From a virus (lineage: Duplodnaviria > Caudoviricetes): a stretch of 64,000 nt of DNA. Where the stretch lies: the IMG/VR virus record IMGVR_UViG_3300027754_000037, one strand, 5' to 3'. The translations under genes and the position numbers were made by a program. Positions 3,728 to 44,700 of the stretch are shown here, piece by piece. The stretch's first letter is position 1. Each line of letters starts with the position of its first letter. The notes under the pieces were generated by a model, which saw only the letters and a list, made by a program, of their open reading frames with translations, ran no database searches and was not told where the DNA came from.

Positions 3728-4411
3728 TTACAATCCTTGCGCCAAATTCCTCAGCAATTCACGATTGTCGTACATCACAATATCATCGAAACCTTCGCTT
3801 GGAGATACCTCCTCAAAACTTGAAAACATCCTGTCAAAAGCAGAATCCGGTATAGTCTTCGACCCACCAGAATCTCGAATCTCTTTGGCTCTCTTCGCAG
3901 CAACTTTTTTAATCACATCCTCTGACCCTTGGAATGGGAAAATGACCGCAACCTTGTGGAAGCCCTCTTCTTGTCCTTTGACGGCCTCTAATGCACTTTT
4001 ACGAGCTTTAACATTCATGTTGGTCATGTCAACGACAATATTCTGACCAGATTCGACTGCTCTTGAAATTCTCTGACGCAGAATAGAGTTGATTTGATTG
4101 TTTGCCTGCACGATCTTGTCATAAGACATAGGTTGCCAAGTCATAAAAGCTGGAGATGCAAATACCCGACCATACTTGGGATGGTTGTCGCCAACTTGAG
4201 AATTTGGAGGAGGAACCATAAACATGTCGTCATAAGTCATTTGCAATCTGCCAGCAACACGGTCAACTATGATGTCTCTGTTGATGATGTAAGGCTCATC
4301 ATGAAAATTGTTTTCAATCCAAGTAGACTTTCCAACAGATGGAGGTCCAACCAAAACAAATATTTTCCTCTTACCATCAGCTTTTTCGACCCATTGAGCG
4401 AATGCCTTCAT
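3728..4411 (-). CDS. P-loop kinase (AAA_33 / polynucleotide-kinase-like)
   Basis: Walker A GPPSVGKS; VVDMTN..KAR lid motif. Confidence 0.75.
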   Translation of the reverse strand: MKAFAQWVEKADGKRKIFVLVGPPSVGKSTWIENNFHDEPYIINRDIIVDRVAGRLQMTYDDMFMVPPPNSQVGDNHPKYGRVFASPAFMTWQPMSYDKIVQANNQINSILRQRISRAVESGQNIVVDMTNMNVKARKSALEAVKGQEEGFHKVAVIFPFQGSEDVIKKVAAKRAKEIRDSGGSKTIPDSAFDRMFSSFEEVSPSEGFDDIVMYDNRELLRNLAQGL

Positions 4412-22595: not shown

Positions 22596-22717
22596 TGCAA
22601 GTCCTTTTATTGTAAGGACTTAAAAATTACAATAAATTACTGAATTTAATTGTATTTTTCAAACGAAACTTCCAGTATCACTTTGGAGAGACAGTTTTAA
22701 CCAGTAAGGAGACTGCA

Positions 22718-23272
22718 ATGTCTGACTACACATCTGCCCCAGCATGTCAACTCCTCGCAACGCATTGCTGCGTTTGCGGGCGACCCCTAGTTGACGCAAT
22801 TAGCGTCAGCTTGGGTATCGGCCCTGAGTGCAGGGGCGGGGCCAATGGCGGGATCACTTCCGAGCAGCAGGAAGCTGCAAACAAAATCACCTTCCTTGCT
22901 GCAATTGCAGCGCAGGAGGGGAAGATTGAGGAGGTGCGGGGTCATGCCGATGCCTTGCGGGTGCTGGGACTCAGCGTTTTGGCAGAAAAGGTGGCCGAGA
23001 GGTTCACCAAAGCCGAAAGGCAGGCCAAAATCTCCATCGTTGAGGATGGCGATATCCTCAAGGTGGACACCCCTTTCCGCCGTGGCGATAAGGATGCCTT
23101 TATTGCGGCATGGAGGGGCATTCCCGGTCGCCGTTACAAGAACGGGGCCAACTTGATCCCCAAGTCTGAAAAGCAGGCCTTGTATGGCCTGCTCCAGCAG
23201 TTCTTCCCCGGCCAGTATGCTGTGGGGCCGAAGGGGGTTTTCCGAATTCCCAAGCCAGAAGTCGAGGCCTAA
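22718..23272 (+). CDS. DUF6011-like Zn-binding protein
   Basis: CCVCGRPLVDAISVSLGIGPEC. Confidence 0.7.
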   Translation: MSDYTSAPACQLLATHCCVCGRPLVDAISVSLGIGPECRGGANGGITSEQQEAANKITFLAAIAAQEGKIEEVRGHADALRVLGLSVLAEKVAERFTKAERQAKISIVEDGDILKVDTPFRRGDKDAFIAAWRGIPGRRYKNGANLIPKSEKQALYGLLQQFFPGQYAVGPKGVFRIPKPEVEA

Positions 23273-23349: not shown

Positions 23350-23625
23350 ATGGCTAAGAAATACAAGTTGATCTGCAAGCTGACCCGTCCTGTTGTAACG
23401 AACGAGGGCGATTTCATACCTGCTGGCACCCCTTGTGAGGTGCTGCGTTGGGATAAAACAGAAAACGGTAAGATCGAGGTCCGCACCAAGGCGTATATGT
23501 ACGCTGACGATCTTGGCGAGGATCGTAATGGGCCTGTTCCCGTTGTAAACACGGGATTGATCATAGCGGTCGATCCGATTGACCTTGAGTACAAGGATTC
23601 TTTTTCAATCAATTCTGTGGAGTAA
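23350..23625 (+). CDS. Hypothetical protein
   Basis: SD GGAGG. Confidence 0.55.
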   Translation: MAKKYKLICKLTRPVVTNEGDFIPAGTPCEVLRWDKTENGKIEVRTKAYMYADDLGEDRNGPVPVVNTGLIIAVDPIDLEYKDSFSINSVE

Positions 23626-23626
23626 C

Positions 23627-23865
23627 TGAGATGAAAATGAAAGTCGATGCTGACAAGGTTATTGATCTTTACCCCTTTCCGCCGTGGCGATAAGGATGCC
23701 TTCATTGCTGCGTGGAGAGGAATTCCCGGTCGCCGTTACAAGAACGGGGCCAACTTGATCCCTAGAACTGAGAAGCAGGCCTTGTATGGCCTGCTCCAGC
23801 AATTCTTCCCCGGCCAGTATGCTGTGGGGCCGAAAGGGGTTTTCCGAATTCCCAAGCCGGAATAA
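23627..23865 (+). pseudogene. Chimeric relic: 5' end of the 23974 gene joined to the 3' third of the 22718 gene
   Basis: 23627-23670 matches 23968-24011; 23671-23860 matches about 23070-23260. Confidence 0.75.
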
Positions 23866-32413: not shown

Positions 32414-32619
32414 AGTCCGGCAATTTTAGGTCATTTGCTAACCCAGATTGCGCAGCTTAACATATCTTGCTGCGTGGTCTGGGTTTTTTTGTAAAAATCA
32501 AATTTCTTTGACTTTAATTGTATTTTTGAAACAAAACTTCCTGTAGGACTTTGACGGTGTGAAAATTTTAAACACCCTGCCCGTATACAGGGTGTAACAT
32601 CCCAACAAGGAGCTTTTCT

Positions 32620-34194
32620 ATGTCAGCATACCTCATGATCCAGAATCCCGGTGTGGCACCTAGCGAGGCCTTCACATTACTTGGAGCCAGCACGAAGCGT
32701 GGCTCTGACAGTAATGCAACTATTGGAAAGTTTGGAACCGGCAACAAGCAGGGAGTTGCCGTCTGTTTGAGGAACAACCTCAATCCAATTGTATTTTGTG
32801 GGAATCTGAAGCTCGAGTTTGGCACTCGAGTGCAGAATGTCCACGATGGATTGAAGAACACGGCTTTCAACCGTGTGGTGGTCAAGTTTGGCGGTAAGGA
32901 TGCAAATGGCAGCACCCGAACCAGCACAGAAGATTTGGGGTTTGTGCTGGAACACGGAGCAACCGATTGGGGAGGTGTCGATCTCGCCCTGCGTGAGTTC
33001 GTGTCAAATTCACTTGACAGGGCCTACGAAGAAGATCAACACGCTTGGAATGTGGAATACACTTCCAAGTTGACAACGGAGGAGAGGGCGCAGGCAGAAA
33101 TTCCTTACACTCGTGAGCGGGAGGCGTTCCTGAAATCTCTGAGGGGATTTCAGAGCCAGCAGCAATGCTACCACGATGTCAAGGTGGAGATCGTGAACGA
33201 GGCTCAAGTCCGAGCCAAGGCCGGTCACACTCGAGTCTTTGTGCCACTCACCGAAGAGGTGCTCAAGTTCCACACCAACTTGGGCAAGTGGTTCTTGCAC
33301 TTTAGCGAACCGCAACTTCTTAACGAGGCAATTCTGCCAAAGTCCAATCGGAACTTCAAGGACAAAGGCACCGCTGTCATTTATCGTCGTGGTGTGCGAG
33401 TCCGTGAGATCGAACAGCATTCAGCCAAGCCGAGCCTTTTCGATTACAACCTTGAGAATCTCAAGCTTGACGAGAGTCGCAAGGTTGACGATTGGTATGT
33501 CCAGCACGAAGCTGCAAGGGCTTTTGCCAATGCTTCCAAGATTCAGCTTGGTGTGTTTTGGCAGGCAATGGCCGATGCCCAGAGGGTTTGGGAGCAGGAG
33601 TTCAGCGAGTACGGTCTTGAGGGTTTAAATGACCAGCAGAAGGCCGTGTGGTGCGAGAGCTTTGAGTCCACTCTGGGTGCCAACGCCGTGATCTCCACCG
33701 ACGAGGGTGGTGAGCAGGCAGCAAGGAAGGGCTTCAAGGTAGTCAAGGCACCTACAGCCATCGTCCAAGCTGCCAGAAAACGAGGTGTGCGTACTCCTGA
33801 GACTGTCTTGACGCAAGATGAGCGGGAAGGACGGCAGGTGTACGACAGCACCCCTGACGCTGAGGCAGCAGTTGACTTTGCGTGGGGTCTTGTCGAGAAG
33901 TATGGCTTGCAGAATGGTCGCAAGCGTCCCATCGTCAAGACCTTCCGACAGGCGATGGAGGGTGGAAGCCAGTTGCTCGGCTACTACCGTGACGGCACCG
34001 TCTTTATCAATCAAGACATTGCCGGTAACGGTGCCCTTGTGACTGGTTGGCACGGGCTCAACCAGCAACTGCTTGCTACTGCTCTGGAAGAGGTGGCCCA
34101 TCACGCTACTGGAGCAGTTGACTTCACACGGGATTTCCAAGACTTGCTCTTGAATATCACCGTGTACGCTGCCAAGGAACTGCTGATTCGCTGA
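32620..34194 (+). CDS. GHKL (HATPase_c-like) ATPase with permuted motif order and C-terminal zincin-like motif
   Basis: IQNPG..LLGASTK..IGKFGTGNK precedes DW..ALREFVSNSLD; C-terminal LEEVAHH. Confidence 0.7.
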   Translation: MSAYLMIQNPGVAPSEAFTLLGASTKRGSDSNATIGKFGTGNKQGVAVCLRNNLNPIVFCGNLKLEFGTRVQNVHDGLKNTAFNRVVVKFGGKDANGSTRTSTEDLGFVLEHGATDWGGVDLALREFVSNSLDRAYEEDQHAWNVEYTSKLTTEERAQAEIPYTREREAFLKSLRGFQSQQQCYHDVKVEIVNEAQVRAKAGHTRVFVPLTEEVLKFHTNLGKWFLHFSEPQLLNEAILPKSNRNFKDKGTAVIYRRGVRVREIEQHSAKPSLFDYNLENLKLDESRKVDDWYVQHEAARAFANASKIQLGVFWQAMADAQRVWEQEFSEYGLEGLNDQQKAVWCESFESTLGANAVISTDEGGEQAARKGFKVVKAPTAIVQAARKRGVRTPETVLTQDEREGRQVYDSTPDAEAAVDFAWGLVEKYGLQNGRKRPIVKTFRQAMEGGSQLLGYYRDGTVFINQDIAGNGALVTGWHGLNQQLLATALEEVAHHATGAVDFTRDFQDLLLNITVYAAKELLIR

Positions 34195-34205
34195 CCTTGG
34201 CATGA

Positions 34206-34250
34206 TCCCGCCGTGGGGAATGTTCGCCCCAAGTCACGGCAACTTGGGGC
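34206..34250 (+). ncRNA. Two-hairpin kissing-loop element, copy 1
   Basis: TCCC[GCCGTG]GGGA and GCCCCAAGT[CACGGCA]ACTTGGGGC; loops complementary. Confidence 0.5.
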
Positions 34251-34325
34251 TGGAGGCAACTTTCAATATTTTCCGTGTAATAGTGATTACTGTGTTGCTA
34301 AAAATCAAATGGAGATGCCATTACC

Positions 34326-34547
34326 ATGATGTACGATTTTCCTCCTGCCTATGTGGTTTACGAAGACCTTAGACAATTTGAGGTCAGCTTTACCATAAAG
34401 AAACCACGCACCATCCGCAGCAAACAGGTGGTGAGTGCTTCCAGTTCGCAGAATGCCCGTGATGTGATTTACGCACAGTATGGGAAGGATAGTGTGACCA
34501 ATATGTCTGTTCGTGAATTGAAGAATAAGGAGAATGCCGATGAATGA
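34326..34547 (+). CDS. Hypothetical protein
   Basis: SD GGAG; 73 aa. Confidence 0.5.
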   Translation: MMYDFPPAYVVYEDLRQFEVSFTIKKPRTIRSKQVVSASSSQNARDVIYAQYGKDSVTNMSVRELKNKENADE

Positions 34548-34728
34548 TAGCGAAAAAAGAGTAACTATATTTGCGCTAACATCGTTGAAAGATTCTTTAT
34601 CATCCCGTATTATAGATTATATGATAGGTGATGGAATACCAGGAGTACATGAAAATGATATAAATGGTGTTGCCGATATTATATCTGGTGCTATTTTGGC
34701 AGTTGAAGGGTGCTATTTTGGCAGTTGA
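34540..34728 (+). CDS. Hypothetical protein
   Basis: SD AAGGAG; 3' end contains a 21-bp tandem duplication. Confidence 0.45.
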   Translation: MNDSEKRVTIFALTSLKDSLSSRIIDYMIGDGIPGVHENDINGVADIISGAILAVEGCYFGS

Positions 34729-34801
34729 AGGGAAGGATATATAATATGCAAAGACCCCCAAGGTGTAGTGCCTTGGGGGTCTTTGTGTCTCTTTCGCAAA
34801 A

Positions 34802-34873
34802 AGCGGGTGAAGAGATTTGAACTCTCAACATTCTGCGTGGAAGGCAGACGCTCTACCGTTGAGCTACACCCGC
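34802..34873 (-). tRNA. tRNA-Gly(TCC)
   Basis: Acceptor GCGGGTG/CACCCGC plus U73; D-arm GCTC/GAGC; anticodon arm TCTGC-CTTCCAC-GCAGA; T-loop TTCAAAT; no encoded CCA. Confidence 0.9.
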
Positions 34874-35139
34874 ATTATCGTTAGGTGGTTTGCCAGTTGG
34901 GTTGAACCAAAGCATCTTGGTTGGCGACATGCCACCTTGGACAGCATTTTCAAGTGCTGTTCTTTGTGGCATTTTGTTGTCGAGTGCTTCAGCAGCATCG
35001 TTGTTAATCTTCTTAATTACTTCGATGTCCCACATGAATAACCTCCTCTTCATTAAATTAGTATTTATGTAATTTTTTTTAACTTTAATTGTATTTTTGA
35101 CACGAAACTTCCTGTAGTCCTTTGAAGGGAGGTTTTTCA

Positions 35140-35580
35140 ATGATCAAAAACCATGAGATAGGCACGGTTGAAACTCTGAGTGGAAAAATGGTTGTTATTT
35201 CGCACGAAGAGTTCGTGCGATTATGCGATGATCACGGGTTGGATGTCAAGACAGTCTTGACTGAATATGACAATGTACCTCTGAACTTTGGCTATGACAG
35301 CGTGTTTGGAGTAGACGCTGTAAAAACGCTGAATAAGGATGGTAAAGTCTATTCGGCAGCGACTATTGGCATTCAGCCTTGTGAGTTTGTCAGAATGCTC
35401 TACGAGGGCGAGAAATCTTTTCAAGAGTTTCTCGCAGAGCAGCACAAAAACGAAGGGACGATAGTTCCCGGCAGCGCCATATGGCAGAAATCTGCCAAGG
35501 ACTATCACAACTACATTCTAGGTGTAAGTGGCGAAAATCGCCCCAACACCGATCTTGACCTGTTTTTCGCAGGAGCCTGA
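35140..35580 (+). CDS. Hypothetical protein
   Basis: SD GGAGG after promoter copy 14. Confidence 0.55.
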   Translation: MIKNHEIGTVETLSGKMVVISHEEFVRLCDDHGLDVKTVLTEYDNVPLNFGYDSVFGVDAVKTLNKDGKVYSAATIGIQPCEFVRMLYEGEKSFQEFLAEQHKNEGTIVPGSAIWQKSAKDYHNYILGVSGENRPNTDLDLFFAGA

Positions 35581-35646
35581 GTTCGATTCACGACCATCCC
35601 GGCGTATACCGGGGTGGTCTGTTTGTTTAATCAAAAGGAGCATCCG

Positions 35647-35931
35647 ATGAACCTGAAACAACACCAACTGATTTGGCGCAAGAACTTTCGTGGACCAGTA
35701 CCCTACAAGCGGGGTGAAACCTGCTTTTCAACGGTACGCAGCAAAGTGGCTGAAGGAATTGAATTCTTCATCCTGAATATCCCCAAGGATCATCCAGAAT
35801 TTGAAACTTTGAACGAAGAGTTCAAAGTCATCCACAAAAATGATTGGGACGGCGACTACTTGGTGCCTTGCCAGTTCGTCCAGTTTGCCGAAGTAGCGGT
35901 GACCTCGCAAGGAGGGGAAACAAGTGAGTGA
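35647..35931 (+). CDS. Hypothetical protein
   Basis: SD AAGGAG. Confidence 0.55.
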   Translation: MNLKQHQLIWRKNFRGPVPYKRGETCFSTVRSKVAEGIEFFILNIPKDHPEFETLNEEFKVIHKNDWDGDYLVPCQFVQFAEVAVTSQGGETSE

Positions 35932-36142
35932 TAGCATTAAAAGGATCAATATCCTTATGGATGTTTTTCCTGAATACAAGGAAGACCCAAGCGTACTGAT
36001 TGAAGACTTCAAATGTTGGGTGGAGAAAAATAGAGAGGAATTGATCGAAGAAAAAACCGAAAGCATGGTGGATTTGATTTCTTTGAGTGGACAACTTCAA
36101 TCAGTATGTGGCGATGAAGTTGTTAGGGTAATGTTGGGGTAA
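35924..36142 (+). CDS. Hypothetical protein
   Basis: SD GGAGG; overlaps upstream stop. Confidence 0.5.
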   Translation: MSDSIKRINILMDVFPEYKEDPSVLIEDFKCWVEKNREELIEEKTESMVDLISLSGQLQSVCGDEVVRVMLG

Positions 36143-36211
36143 AATAATTCCTAAATATTACAATTGTATTTTTTGAACATAAATTCCTGTAAGACTATGG
36201 AGGAACTAAAA

Positions 36212-36604
36212 ATGAAGATACTTCAAGCGTTCGTCTATAGGAACCTACACCAAGCCGGTGTGTGTTATTCAGTAAAGGATCGCAGCACCGGCAAGGTGGC
36301 CATGCACTCCAACAACTTGGTGGTGAGCAGGGCCAACTTCATAGTCCAAAAAGGCGGACAAGCAAAAGTTCGTCAATTGGGTCGAAAACAAGTTCATGCA
36401 GGGGTTGTTGGCGATTTGGTGGTTGACCCCATCGAGTTGGCCAAAGTCCTGCCCGAACTCCAAAGTGCCCCCAAAGCACAATATAACCCCTACCAGAACG
36501 ATACCTTCGTGTCTGAGTCTAACGAACCGCTGACCAAGGCAGACTATGTGCTGCTTACTAGCGAAAATGGCAAGTCGTCTGTCCGTTACATCACAAAGGA
36601 GTAG
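36212..36604 (+). CDS. Conserved phage hypothetical protein
   Basis: VYRNLH..YSV, KQVHAGVVG, YNPY..TFV motifs. Confidence 0.65.
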   Translation: MKILQAFVYRNLHQAGVCYSVKDRSTGKVAMHSNNLVVSRANFIVQKGGQAKVRQLGRKQVHAGVVGDLVVDPIELAKVLPELQSAPKAQYNPYQNDTFVSESNEPLTKADYVLLTSENGKSSVRYITKE

Positions 36605-36608
36605 TTCG

Positions 36609-36890
36609 ATGAGCACCACACTTGAAAAAGAACCAAAAGCCAATCCCGTAAGGGACAAGGTTGTTTTTAATGTACTCAAGGCCTTGGGAACACCTCCCGG
36701 TTACTATCAGACAAAAGCCAGCAATGTCTTCGAGAATCGATGGAGAGTCGATGTATGGGTCACCATTGCCCAATCGATTCTCGGCACCATTGCCCAGTCT
36801 GTAATCACAGACAGTTTCTTTGTGGTTGCCGATGAGAACGGGAAGGTAGTTTCGCCAATAATCACCAATAAGTATGGAGAAAATCGATGA
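36609..36890 (+). CDS. Hypothetical protein
   Basis: SD AAGGAG; NRWRVDVW. Confidence 0.55.
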   Translation: MSTTLEKEPKANPVRDKVVFNVLKALGTPPGYYQTKASNVFENRWRVDVWVTIAQSILGTIAQSVITDSFFVVADENGKVVSPIITNKYGENR

Positions 36891-37135
36891 ACAACTACAG
36901 GCATCAGTTGTTATTTGATAACGGTTTTGGAATAAGTATAATTTGCCATAGCTCAAGCTATGGAAATGAAAGTTGCCTGTTTGAGGTTGCTTTGTTGAAG
37001 GAGGGTGGACTTGTTTATCACGAGAATTTTCGGGATGTGCGGGGTTTTTTAGATTTCCACGCCGTTGCCCGGACGGTTGATGAGGTCAAGGCTTATAAAT
37101 CCGACCTCATCGTCCAGAATCATCCTTGTTTTTGA
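36887..37135 (+). CDS. Conserved phage hypothetical protein
   Basis: FDNGFGISII..SYG..LFEVALL. Confidence 0.6.
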   Translation: MNNYRHQLLFDNGFGISIICHSSSYGNESCLFEVALLKEGGLVYHENFRDVRGFLDFHAVARTVDEVKAYKSDLIVQNHPCF

Positions 37136-37160
37136 AGTCATTTACTAAGGAGGCGACAAG

Positions 37161-37406
37161 ATGAGCGAACAATATAGAGGTTTTTACTTCATTCACAAAA
37201 CTGAGGTGAAGGACCTCACGAAAGAACAACTTTGGGAGGAGGTCGAGGAGTACGACCGGAGGTGTGAGGTCGCAGCAAGGAACGGCGAGGGAATTAGCTC
37301 GAAGGAGGGGGTGAGGAACCGACTCTGCCGTGCAGAATTGTATCAGCGCACTTGGGGAAATATCCCCTTCGAGCAGGTTCAAAATTTCTTTGAGCCAATT
37401 TCTTAA
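37161..37406 (+). CDS. Hypothetical protein
   Basis: SD AAGGAGG. Confidence 0.55.
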   Translation: MSEQYRGFYFIHKTEVKDLTKEQLWEEVEEYDRRCEVAARNGEGISSKEGVRNRLCRAELYQRTWGNIPFEQVQNFFEPIS

Positions 37407-37426
37407 TTACAACCTAGGAATCAGAA

Positions 37427-37654
37427 ATGAAAGTATCATTAGACAATGGCAATACATGGGTAGAAGTAGAAAATTTAAAGGTTATTCAAAATATTGAAGA
37501 CCCAACTGATTACGAAGATGAACCTTCCGAAGTGGAGTTGCATTTCAATTTCACTTCAGAAGGAGTGGTTACTGATGTTTGGATAAACGATATTTGTCAG
37601 GGTACTTCAAGTGAAGTTTATTTGACTATCGGAGACAATTTGGTCAACCACTAG
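37427..37654 (+). CDS. Hypothetical acidic protein
   Basis: SD AGGA. Confidence 0.5.
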   Translation: MKVSLDNGNTWVEVENLKVIQNIEDPTDYEDEPSEVELHFNFTSEGVVTDVWINDICQGTSSEVYLTIGDNLVNH

Positions 37655-37687
37655 TTTTTTTGATTGTACAGCCTAATAATTAAACAA

Positions 37688-37731
37688 TCCCGGTGCGGGG
37701 ACAATAGCAATCCAAGGTCGCACCACCTTGG
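37688..37731 (+). ncRNA. Two-hairpin kissing-loop element, copy 2
   Basis: TCCC[GGTGCG]GGGA and CCAAGGT[CGCACC]ACCTTGG; loops complementary. Confidence 0.5.
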
Positions 37732-37746
37732 TAGTATGGAGACTAT

Positions 37747-37965
37747 ATGAGCAATCGAGTTGGACGACCCGACAAATTTGCACCAAAGCAAGTGAAACAA
37801 TTGAAGCAGATCGTGTCAATATATGGTCTGCGCAAGGGCCGACAAGTTCTTAATCGACTTGGAATCCAAGTCAGCTTGCCGACTTTGAGCAAATACATCG
37901 GCAGCACTAGCTGTGGGAAACCTCTGGTTCTTAAGCGTGGTCGCCCAGTTAAAGTGGAGGCTTAA
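37747..37965 (+). CDS. Small basic, possibly HTH DNA-binding protein
   Basis: GRP..F and KRGRP motifs; VSLPTLSKY helix. Confidence 0.5.
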   Translation: MSNRVGRPDKFAPKQVKQLKQIVSIYGLRKGRQVLNRLGIQVSLPTLSKYIGSTSCGKPLVLKRGRPVKVEA

Positions 37966-43172: not shown

Positions 43173-43598
43173 CCCGCACCTACTGAGATTCTCCCAGCCC
43201 GCCACCCAGAAAGTGGCGGGCCTTTTTTTGTTTCATAAACAATACAGATAAAAGTAGTTTACTATTATTGTTTGTCTGGAAAATATATAAGATAAAAATA
43301 GTTTAAATATATTTTTACAAAAAAAATAATTAAACAATTAATAATGAAAAAGTTTTAGACTATGGGATACCCCCCTACCCCCCTACCCGCTATGACTGTC
43401 TTCCTTTTGATTCACTCCTTAGCCCTTTTTTGGCCACGGGGATTGTTGCAAATTTTCGTCCCCAACAATTTATGAATTATCCCATATGGGCTGGAAAGTC
43501 AATCGGGGTGGCATCCTAAAAAAATGCGCCGGGAGGTTTTTTGATTTTGGAGGGAGGGTTTTTGGGTGGTTTGGGAGGCGAAAAGAAGATTGTTTGTT

Positions 43599-43833
43599 CC
43601 TAGAGCAATAGGGGAAGCTCCTGAAGCAATAGGGGAAGCTCCTAGAGCAATAGGGGAAGCTCCTGAAGCAATAGGGGAAGCTCCTGAAGCAATAGGGGAA
43701 GCTCCTGAAGCAATGGGGGAAGCTCCTGAAGCAATGGGGGAAGCTCCTGAAGCAATGGGGGGAAGCTCCTGAAGCAATGGGGGGAAGCTCCTGAAGCAAT
43801 AGGGGAAGCTCCTGAATCAATGGGGGAAGCTCA
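43599..43833. repeat. About 11 x 21(22)-bp tandem array GCAAT(A/G)GGGGAAGCTCCT(GAA/AGA)
   Basis: Read directly; no spacers. Confidence 0.9.
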
Positions 43834-44700
43834 TCACTTTGGCAGGAAGACTCTTTTCATATGATCTAAATCTGTTTCAAAAGGGTTTTTGCTTGATCCC
43901 GGTATGTCCTTGATAACCTTTTCGAGACCTCCCTTGGAATCGACATTACGGAAGAACTCCAAATCCTTATCTGCTCTGCTTGTGCTTGGATAAACCGATC
44001 TGGCATCTATATTTCCAAATTGGTCCTTGGAGCTCCTGTTATAAGTTGGATCGTATCCAGAAGTTGTTGGCCTTAGAGCATCAAATGCTTGTCCTATCAA
44101 ATCATTAGCTTTTTCGCTGGAATCCATTAAGAATTTACCTGCTTTTTTGATTGGATCTGTCAATCCAAAAAGTTCTAAAGCTTTCTTTACCAGCCATATA
44201 GCTGCATCTGCTGAAGATTTGACAACTGCTTGGAAAGCTGGCCAAAGGTATTCGGTGCCTATCCATTTGAATAATGTTCCTATCTTGTCAGCAAGTGGTG
44301 CCAAGAAAGGGAAAAGAGACCTGATTGCGTCAAAGCGGAAACCAAGGTATATGATGGCAGCAACGAATGTGATCAATCCCACTTTCTTGATGATACTCCA
44401 GATCATGGAGAGTGGTCCGCTGGGTTTCTCGATTTTAGCCTCGTCTTCCTTTGTAATTTTGGCGTTTTTGGCTTGAGGAGACTTGGAGAGCATCTTCATG
44501 GCCAAACTTGGCAGGAAGAAGAATTCGTTTAATTTCTGGCATTCAATATCAACTATCATTCTTTCCTGAATGCTCATGCTGTTGTAGAGGTTATTGAGAA
44601 CTTTTTCCTCCAAGTCTTTGGATTCTTGGATGGACAATCCAGATTTTTTCAGGATGGACCTTTCTATTTCTTTGCAGCGATATTGATCAAGATTTAGCAT
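43834..44700 (-). CDS. Hypothetical protein with central hydrophobic/amphipathic segment
   Basis: Likely start MLNLDQY with SD AAGGA. Confidence 0.55.
   Translation of the reverse strand: MLNLDQYRCKEIERSILKKSGLSIQESKDLEEKVLNNLYNSMSIQERMIVDIECQKLNEFFFLPSLAMKMLSKSPQAKNAKITKEDEAKIEKPSGPLSMIWSIIKKVGLITFVAAIIYLGFRFDAIRSLFPFLAPLADKIGTLFKWIGTEYLWPAFQAVVKSSADAAIWLVKKALELFGLTDPIKKAGKFLMDSSEKANDLIGQAFDALRPTTSGYDPTYNRSSKDQFGNIDARSVYPSTSRADKDLEFFRNVDSKGGLEKVIKDIPGSSKNPFETDLDHMKRVFLPK

Follow-up and report, generated by a model that had tools for sequence, protein, structure and literature searches.

The 64,000-nucleotide stretch of phage DNA analysed here (the window) comes from the IMG/VR virus record IMGVR_UViG_3300027754_000037 (Duplodnaviria; Caudoviricetes) and carries on its + strand, at two places 3' of a gene, a compact RNA element. 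The element consists of two hairpins, H1 and H2, separated by a short linker; the loop of H1 (L1) is complementary to the loop of H2 (loop 2), and the two can form an intramolecular loop-loop, or kissing, helix. Site 1 follows the gene of a 524-amino acid (aa) protein, and 11 nucleotides (nt) separate the TGA stop of this gene (34192-34194) from H1. Site 2 lies between two genes of the same strand. The coordinates of the features are collected in Table 1.

The original prediction had described two intergenic elements with hairpins of complementary loops. Direct reading of the sequence, RNAfold and a shuffle control confirmed this architecture and both elements proved to be real, but the prediction had not recognised that they belong to a multi-copy intercistronic module with a terminator-type H2. 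The complementarity of the two loops is six out of six at both sites and ends exactly at the loop borders: at site 1 the positions 34235-34240 are complementary to L1, and at site 2 all positions of the 6-nt loop CGCACC pair with L1. Common to both sites are an A before TCCC and the CCAAG/CTTGG motif in the H2 stem. Both H1 and H2 were returned by RNAfold at each site in the minimum free energy or centroid structure, the H2 of site 1 alone having -15 kcal/mol, and site 2 was matched by the covariance model of the family (see below) with 55 bits and an E value of 1e-16. A run of U residues (U-run) after H2 was found at neither window site, the tails being CTGGAGG (site 1) and TAGTATGG (site 2). 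The descriptor applied for the searches required an H1 of at least 4 bp, an H2 of at least 6 bp and at least six contiguous loop-loop pairs. On 578 kb it found 8 distinct real elements, versus 0 matches in each of 10 dinucleotide shuffles; such shuffles were used as the control for hairpin descriptors, since pairing survives reversal of the sequence and reversal is therefore unsuitable. The TCCC-N6-GGGA pattern emphasised in the original prediction is indeed present, but by itself it stays at chance level (2 matches, a number reached in 19 of 100 shuffles). The evidence for the element is the combined architecture, not the bare pattern.

Table 1. Position of the two elements in the window and of the genes and signals next to them
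Feature	Position	Strand	Sequence or size	Basis or remark
Promoter-like motif, direct-repeat family D2	32500..32557	+		heads the transcription unit ending at site 1
Gene upstream of site 1	32620..34194	+	524 aa, function unassigned	open reading frame list; >700 homologues
Site 1 hairpin H1	34206-34209 and 34216-34219 (arms); 34210-34215 (loop L1)	+	TCCC and GGGA; loop GCCGTG	sequence, RNAfold
Site 1 linker	34220-34225	+	6 nt, unconserved	sequence
Site 1 hairpin H2	34226-34234 and 34242-34250 (arms); 34235-34241 (loop)	+	GCCCCAAGT and ACTTGGGGC; loop CACGGCA	sequence, RNAfold, descriptor
Gene upstream of site 2	37427-37654 (TAG stop 37652-37654)	+		open reading frame list; 33 nt before site 2
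Site 2 hairpin H1	37688-37691 and 37698-37701 (arms); 37692-37697 (loop L1)	+	TCCC and GGGA; loop GGTGCG	sequence, RNAfold
Site 2 linker	37702-37711	+	10 nt, A/U-rich	sequence
Site 2 hairpin H2	37712-37718 and 37725-37731 (arms); 37719-37724 (loop)	+	CCAAGGT and ACCTTGG; loop CGCACC	sequence, RNAfold, covariance model
Ribosome site	37738-37741	+	GGAG	begins 6 nt after H2 of site 2
Gene downstream of site 2	37747-37965	+	72 aa	homologues P0125 and P0126 have the element upstream

A covariance model was built on H1 and H2 only, with the kissing pairs left out. At E < 1e-8 it gave 58 matches, which correspond to 51 distinct copies on freshwater phage contigs. Thirteen copies missed by the descriptor were recovered in this way and all of them retain the kissing pairs; the sole family copy without these pairs is a decayed one which has lost H1 as well. 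When the metagenomes were searched with a pattern that was indifferent to the loop sequences, 86 matches were obtained, 22 of them with six loop-loop pairs and all others with four or fewer. Sixteen of the 22 have the loops GGTGTG/CACACC and six have GGTGCG/CGCACT with one G·U pair. The copies can be numerous at one locus: in L084 ten of them are spread over about 4.5 kb, which comes to roughly one for each small gene. Two are found on a 181-kb IMG/VR contig, and in the 144-kb record holding the window (G000) sites 1 and 2 are the only ones. Two contigs binned into metagenome-assembled genomes also carry copies, but their labels conflict (an Acidimicrobiaceae bin versus a Phycisphaerales bin) and a host could not be assigned. 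Megablast and blastn searches of cultured phages with the region and with a consensus copy gave no match. The scan of Rfam 15, a collection with families such as twister, pistol, hatchet, hammerhead and mini-ykkC, returned only tRNA at gathering scores and nothing on either site at E <= 10, in agreement with the original prediction, in which the motif was not recognised as a named riboswitch or ribozyme. The loop-agnostic pattern with the leading A had 16 matches in IMG/VR, all of them by chance, with a loop complementarity of three or less. Searches for related loci with the 524-aa protein found none when the single sequence was used and 13 loci when an alignment was used, none with the element. 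Judged by its sequences, the element is a real and strongly supported RNA family of uncultured freshwater phages, and it is uncatalogued.

Some candidates were rejected. The pattern-matching hairpins of L088 and L062, which have T8 runs, have at most four loop-loop pairs and no covariation, and were excluded. A weak match of the model at 136632-136681 of G000 is a plain terminator-like hairpin. The only other descriptor match in this record falls on a terminator hairpin at 22599-22638 of the window (AAGTCCTT...AAGGACTT), with a loop complementary to A/T-rich sequence immediately 3' of the hairpin; this is probably a chance match. The apparent 'kissing' pair of 23131-23193 and 23733-23795 is a nearly identical duplicated coding segment and not an RNA element; the genes at 22718-23272 and about 23600-23865 share a duplicated C-terminal coding segment, and the first of them has a DUF6011 domain.

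Relatives were also located by synteny, that is, by homologues of the flanking genes, with no condition placed on the loops. The element is present 3' of the stop codon of the 524-aa homologue in L020 (91% identity) and in L021/L022 (80%), in each case with the loops GCCGTG/CACGGC, as at site 1. In L021 the stems are altered but still pair (TCTC/GAGA and CCCCAGA/TCTGGGG) and H2 is followed by a T6 run. A plain hairpin and T-run terminator occupies the position of the element in L024 (72%) and in L027, L028 and L029 (63-65% and 54% identity). Upstream of the 72-aa homologue, L040 (92%) has the H1 arms CCCC/GGGG and the loops GGTGCG/CGCACC, as at site 2, while L041-L046 (75%) have new stems, the loops AGTACG/CGTACT and a T6 run. 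The 524-aa gene and site 1 are both absent in L041. Copy number and flanked genes vary among close relatives, L040 having four copies within 1.5 kb against a single one at the corresponding place of the window. When L040 476-1508 was compared with 37378-37651 of the window, four elements and three different small genes stood against one gene and no element, between conserved flanks; the difference looks like a cassette replacement bounded by elements.

In the alignment produced by the model all 300 cells of the kissing helix are paired, and both partners have changed in five of its six pairs. The pairing amounts to 97% in H1 and to 88% in H2, the lower value for H2 arising from loops of 7 and 8 nt that differ in register by one column; parsing H2 sequence by sequence gave 370 Watson-Crick pairs and 13 of the G·U type. 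Slid partners, used as controls, gave 38-53% pairing across the whole structure. The H1 stem occurs as TCCC/GGGA, TCTC/GAGA, CCCC/GGGG, CCAC/GTGG and GGCC(T)/(G)GGCC, and the six loop-pair versions seen in the family require at least six compensatory double changes. The covarying loop-loop helix in a compact structured RNA, which had been proposed from the two window copies, was thus borne out in the family, and the further homologues, on which that proposal had been made to depend, were found in number by the descriptor and model searches of the metagenomes. Every copy runs in the same direction as the genes. When the + (gene) strand is read, the kissing helix has 8 G·U pairs and the stems have 22; the opposite strand would show A·C mismatches in their place. 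The G·U pairs on the gene strand only and the co-orientation with the genes mean that the function lies in the + strand RNA.

The family fold can be described as follows. H1 has 4-5 bp and a 6-nt loop, all six nucleotides of which are paired to loop 2. The linker is 5-12 nt long, A/U-rich and unconserved. H2 is GC-rich, with 6-10 bp and a loop of 6-8 nt, made up of 0-1 nt, the six pairing nucleotides and usually one A. The distance from the 3' end of H1 to loop 2 is 14-18 nt in all copies and the whole module measures 45-60 nt. Loop 1 is GGUGYG in 45 of the 51 copies and R-N-N-R-Y-G in all of them, loop 2 is mostly CRCACC, and the unpaired A after its pairing part is found in 45/51. Apart from this A and the variable linker there is no unpaired stretch, and no other loop nucleotide is free. 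In the family consensus (e.g. L067:5750-5809) loop 2 and the 3' arm of H2 read CACC-A-CCUU, and the H2 stems have CCWWGG on both arms. The former sequence is close to the 3' tail of the 16S rRNA (CACC-U-CCUU). A mimic of the anti-Shine-Dalgarno sequence was considered and rejected, this resemblance not being shared by the three divergent lineages.

The element begins 5-13 nt past a stop codon of the same strand in 31 of 37 copies, most often at 7 nt, and six copies, site 2 included, are 30-38 nt from the stop. The stops ahead of it are TAA (23), TGA (9) and TAG (5), often within TAA-TTNCTAC. In 31 of 39 copies the first 40 nt after H2 contain a ribosome site and a start codon. TTTT was found within 10 nt after H2 in 23/39 copies (59%) versus 4.4% of the background windows (p 1e-21). 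At both window sites H2 is a GC-rich stem-loop just 3' of a gene on the sense strand, as in a terminator. The H2 hairpin alone is weak, its median being -11 kcal/mol versus -18 to -28 kcal/mol for ordinary terminators in the relatives, and its loop is larger than theirs; a further -5.6 to -9.3 kcal/mol comes from the kissing duplex and about -6 kcal/mol from H1. Ordinary terminators of the same contigs lie within 5-13 nt of the stop in 12 of 28 cases, versus the 31/37 of the element. On the + strand no promoter-like match was found in or beside either site, nor within the L084 copies, where the elements stand in series with no space for promoters between them. A stimulator of stop-codon read-through or frameshifting was rejected, the stops being mostly TAA and the number of copies in which no stop closes the frame within the element (21 of 37) being close to the chance expectation. 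As far as a comparison of sequences can establish them, the fold with its three covarying helices, the strand, the placement between stop codon and ribosome site and the enrichment of U-runs are properties of the family; from these we infer putative roles in termination, attenuation and stabilisation.

The region around the sites is divided by copies of a promoter-like motif (AATTGTATTTTTGAAACGAAACTTCC), nine in number, with starts at 32500, 35071, 36146, 39263, 39739, 41044, 41473, 42102 and 42499; the motif had 0 exact matches in IMG/VR. These copies split the region into transcription units. The 524-aa gene is the sole gene of its unit, with site 1 at the end, and site 2 is inside the unit headed by the copy at 36146. 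A tRNA-Gly(UCC) gene at 34802-34873 (-) runs counter to all the genes around it. It is followed at 34749-34785 (-) by a 15-bp hairpin with the core CCAAGG/CCTTGG, which has neither a partner hairpin nor a T-run, and the same tRNA-Gly/hairpin arrangement was seen in L020 (weak model match 4250-4324). At 43556-43868 the window has a tandem array with a 21-nt unit (GAAGCTCCTGAAGCAATAGGG-like) in at least 11 copies.

We suggest, at about an even chance of being right, that the module is a composite intercistronic RNA of the terminator or attenuator type, in which H1 acts as a clamp on an H2 that is weak and has a large loop. The stability missing from such a terminator-type hairpin would come from the kissing helix together with H1. 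The module would fold autonomously into a compact structure at 3' ends or between cistrons, where it would set the read-through and protect the upstream message; the role we favour is a tuned read-through combined with the stabilisation of mRNA ends or segments. As both window copies are without a U-run, they probably act as non-terminating mRNA punctuation, for the stability or insulation of the neighbouring cistrons. Their U-run would have been lost, or they would never have had one.

Several observations weigh against the composite terminator. Both window copies, the L020 copy and one L040 copy have no U-run, yet the whole fold is kept, and a fold kept without a U-run means that the conserved function cannot be termination alone. 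In L084, where the copies are in series without promoters, efficient termination would silence the downstream genes, so that the element is leaky at most. Taken together, the window copies without a U-run and the serial copies without promoters indicate that the conserved role cannot be efficient termination. With an H2 of 9-10 bp and a linker of 5-6 nt the three helices might not coexist. A few phage lineages supply most of the copies, and the cell counts of the alignment overstate the number of independent events. In the lake metatranscriptome run X24 there are contigs identical to 33714-34132, 34368-34583 and 35224-35479, which means that an RNA library contained the phage or its DNA, but these contigs cover neighbouring genes and none of them spans either site.

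A different use of the same fold would be a switch that senses translation. With a ribosome at the stop codon, which lies 5-13 nt ahead of the element, H1 and loop 1 would be hidden; coupled translation would then lead to read-through and untranslated RNA to termination. A variant might employ a phage factor acting like the ribosome. The tight spacing between stop and H1, which ordinary terminators do not share to this extent (31/37 vs 12/28), speaks for such a switch, as do the weakness of H2 alone compared with ordinary terminators, which would make the clamp necessary for folding, and the serial elements without promoters between them, which require read-through. On the other hand six copies, site 2 among them, are 30-38 nt away from the stop, 40% of the copies have no U-run and thus nothing to switch, and the spacing may have no other cause than genome compaction, or the duplication of a unit that includes the TAA-TTNCTAC lead-in. 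We regard the switch as possible but unlikely. The same grade is given to its more specific form, a doubtful candidate in which the module would be a protein-free and ligand-free sensor of transcription-translation coupling after each gene, the polymerase reading on only during translation. Somewhat less probable is an endonuclease processing site, comparable to the RNase III sites between the early genes of T7. Here RNase III would cut the coaxial stack of H1, kissing helix and H2 (16-20 bp), or RNase E the A/U-rich linker, or either enzyme the other target, and separately stable mRNAs would be produced. The strictly intercistronic position, recurring after most small genes, fits this proposal; the A/U-rich linker between the stems is the only single-stranded stretch, and the fold is retained where the U-run is missing. 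It leaves the enrichment of U-runs unexplained, however, and the stack does not reach two helical turns and has breaks in its backbone.

The conservation of the loops beyond the needs of pairing (GGUGYG in 45/51, R-N-N-R-Y-G in all) and the unpaired A after the pairing part of loop 2 would be expected of a structure-specific platform for a protein, for instance a Rop-like protein that recognises kissing complexes, or an antiterminator or regulator of the phage; such a protein would exert a global control over the small-gene operons. Since recent duplication can account for the conservation of the loops, the loops of three lineages are quite different and no candidate protein was identified, we consider a platform of this kind improbable. 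A repeat acting at the level of DNA is slightly more improbable still. In that case the elements would be homology patches which shuffle small gene cassettes, or a selfish interspersed repeat, and the RNA fold would be secondary. The four copies per 1.5 kb of L040 versus one in the window, with genes replaced between conserved flanks, the joint absence of the 524-aa gene and site 1 in L041, and the documented shuffling mediated by the promoter-early stem-loop (PeSL) cassettes (PMC2839356) are in its favour. Selection on RNA is indicated by the compensatory changes in three helices, by the strand-specific G·U pairs, by the strict orientation of the copies along the genes and by the U-run, although a function at the DNA level could coexist with one in RNA. 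Among the functions named in the original prediction, a nuclease block, a processing signal and a regulatory switch are still candidates. A small ribozyme, also named there, is unlikely: with all loop nucleotides paired except for one A, and an unconserved linker, neither a self-cleaving ribozyme nor a ligand-binding riboswitch is at all probable. The compact pseudoknotted fold and the two-hairpin layout, like that of the guanidine-II riboswitch, would suit them, but there is no Rfam match even at E <= 10, the one A is the only conserved unpaired nucleotide, the loops covary, the linker is variable and many copies follow unrelated genes.

The composite terminator-type module, if correctly read, would imply that terminator-type hairpins can be composite, kissing-clamped folds. 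The element adds a structured RNA family with three covarying helices, one of them tertiary, that is outside both Rfam and the cultured phages. Being short (about 45 nt) and provided with at least six natural loop-pair versions, it is amenable to mutate-and-rescue experiments and is a potential set of distinguishable regulatory parts. Like an intrinsic terminator, it offers a GC-rich hairpin directly 3' of a gene on the coding strand, with a U-run in 59% of the family copies. It differs in the weaker H2, in the 6-8 nt loop which is fully paired to the loop of an upstream hairpin, in the lack of a U-run in 40% of the copies, both window ones included, and in its occurrence in series inside operons. 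In the literature we found no description of a phage terminator loop that is clamped by an upstream hairpin.

The PeSL cassettes of T4-type phages have a sigma-70-like -35/-10 promoter in the motif (Arbiol et al. 2010, PMC2839356). As in those cassettes, a repeated motif fills the gap between stop codon and Shine-Dalgarno sequence among small orphan genes, and copy number and flanked genes vary among close relatives (PMC2839356). The PeSL stem-loop acts as a terminator or attenuator (PMC2839356), to which the role of the present family may be likened. Unlike PeSL, the element is without a sigma-70-type promoter, and it has two hairpins and a covarying kissing helix instead of one stem-loop.

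Multi-copy, gene-oriented structured elements between cistrons are also represented by REP/BIME of enterobacterial operons and by the RNase III sites of the T7 early mRNA. By analogy with these, the copies without a U-run likely have a role as intercistronic stabilisers or processing hairpins. The REP/BIME elements and T7 RNase III sites differ in being single hairpins without tertiary pairing, and no sequence relation to them was seen. REP/BIME are defined as multi-copy extragenic imperfect palindromes that occur genome-wide, with a RAYT transposase. The present element is multi-copy and extragenic, but G000 has only 2 copies in 144 kb, and each copy is made of two hairpins and a kissing helix.

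The guanidine-II riboswitch (mini-ykkC) has two small hairpins, a short linker and an intramolecular loop-loop kissing interaction beside an expression signal. Its conserved ACGR tetraloops bind the ligand and form only two loop-loop pairs, whereas the family loops are 6-8 nt long, variable, covarying and fully paired, and have no Rfam match. In the ANTAR-regulated antiterminator two hexaloops carry a conserved A1 and G4, and the second of the hairpins forms in competition with a terminator downstream; in the family loop 1 is mostly GGUGYG, loop 2 CRCACC, and H2 is itself the terminator-type hairpin. The element thus belongs neither to PeSL (no promoter) nor to guanidine-II (no ACGR loops) nor to the ANTAR targets (other loops and logic).

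Loops of 6 or 7 nt paired along their whole length are known from HIV TAR-TAR* and from ColE1 RNA I-RNA II, and in the cobalamin riboswitch the L5-L13 kissing loop holds the expression-platform hairpin. The same whole-loop complementarity, kept by compensatory change, was found in the family alignment, which predicts a fully paired kissing complex for the element. Those systems are intermolecular or ligand-dependent, whereas the family element is predicted to be intramolecular, appears ligand-free by its sequence and is joined to a terminator-type hairpin.

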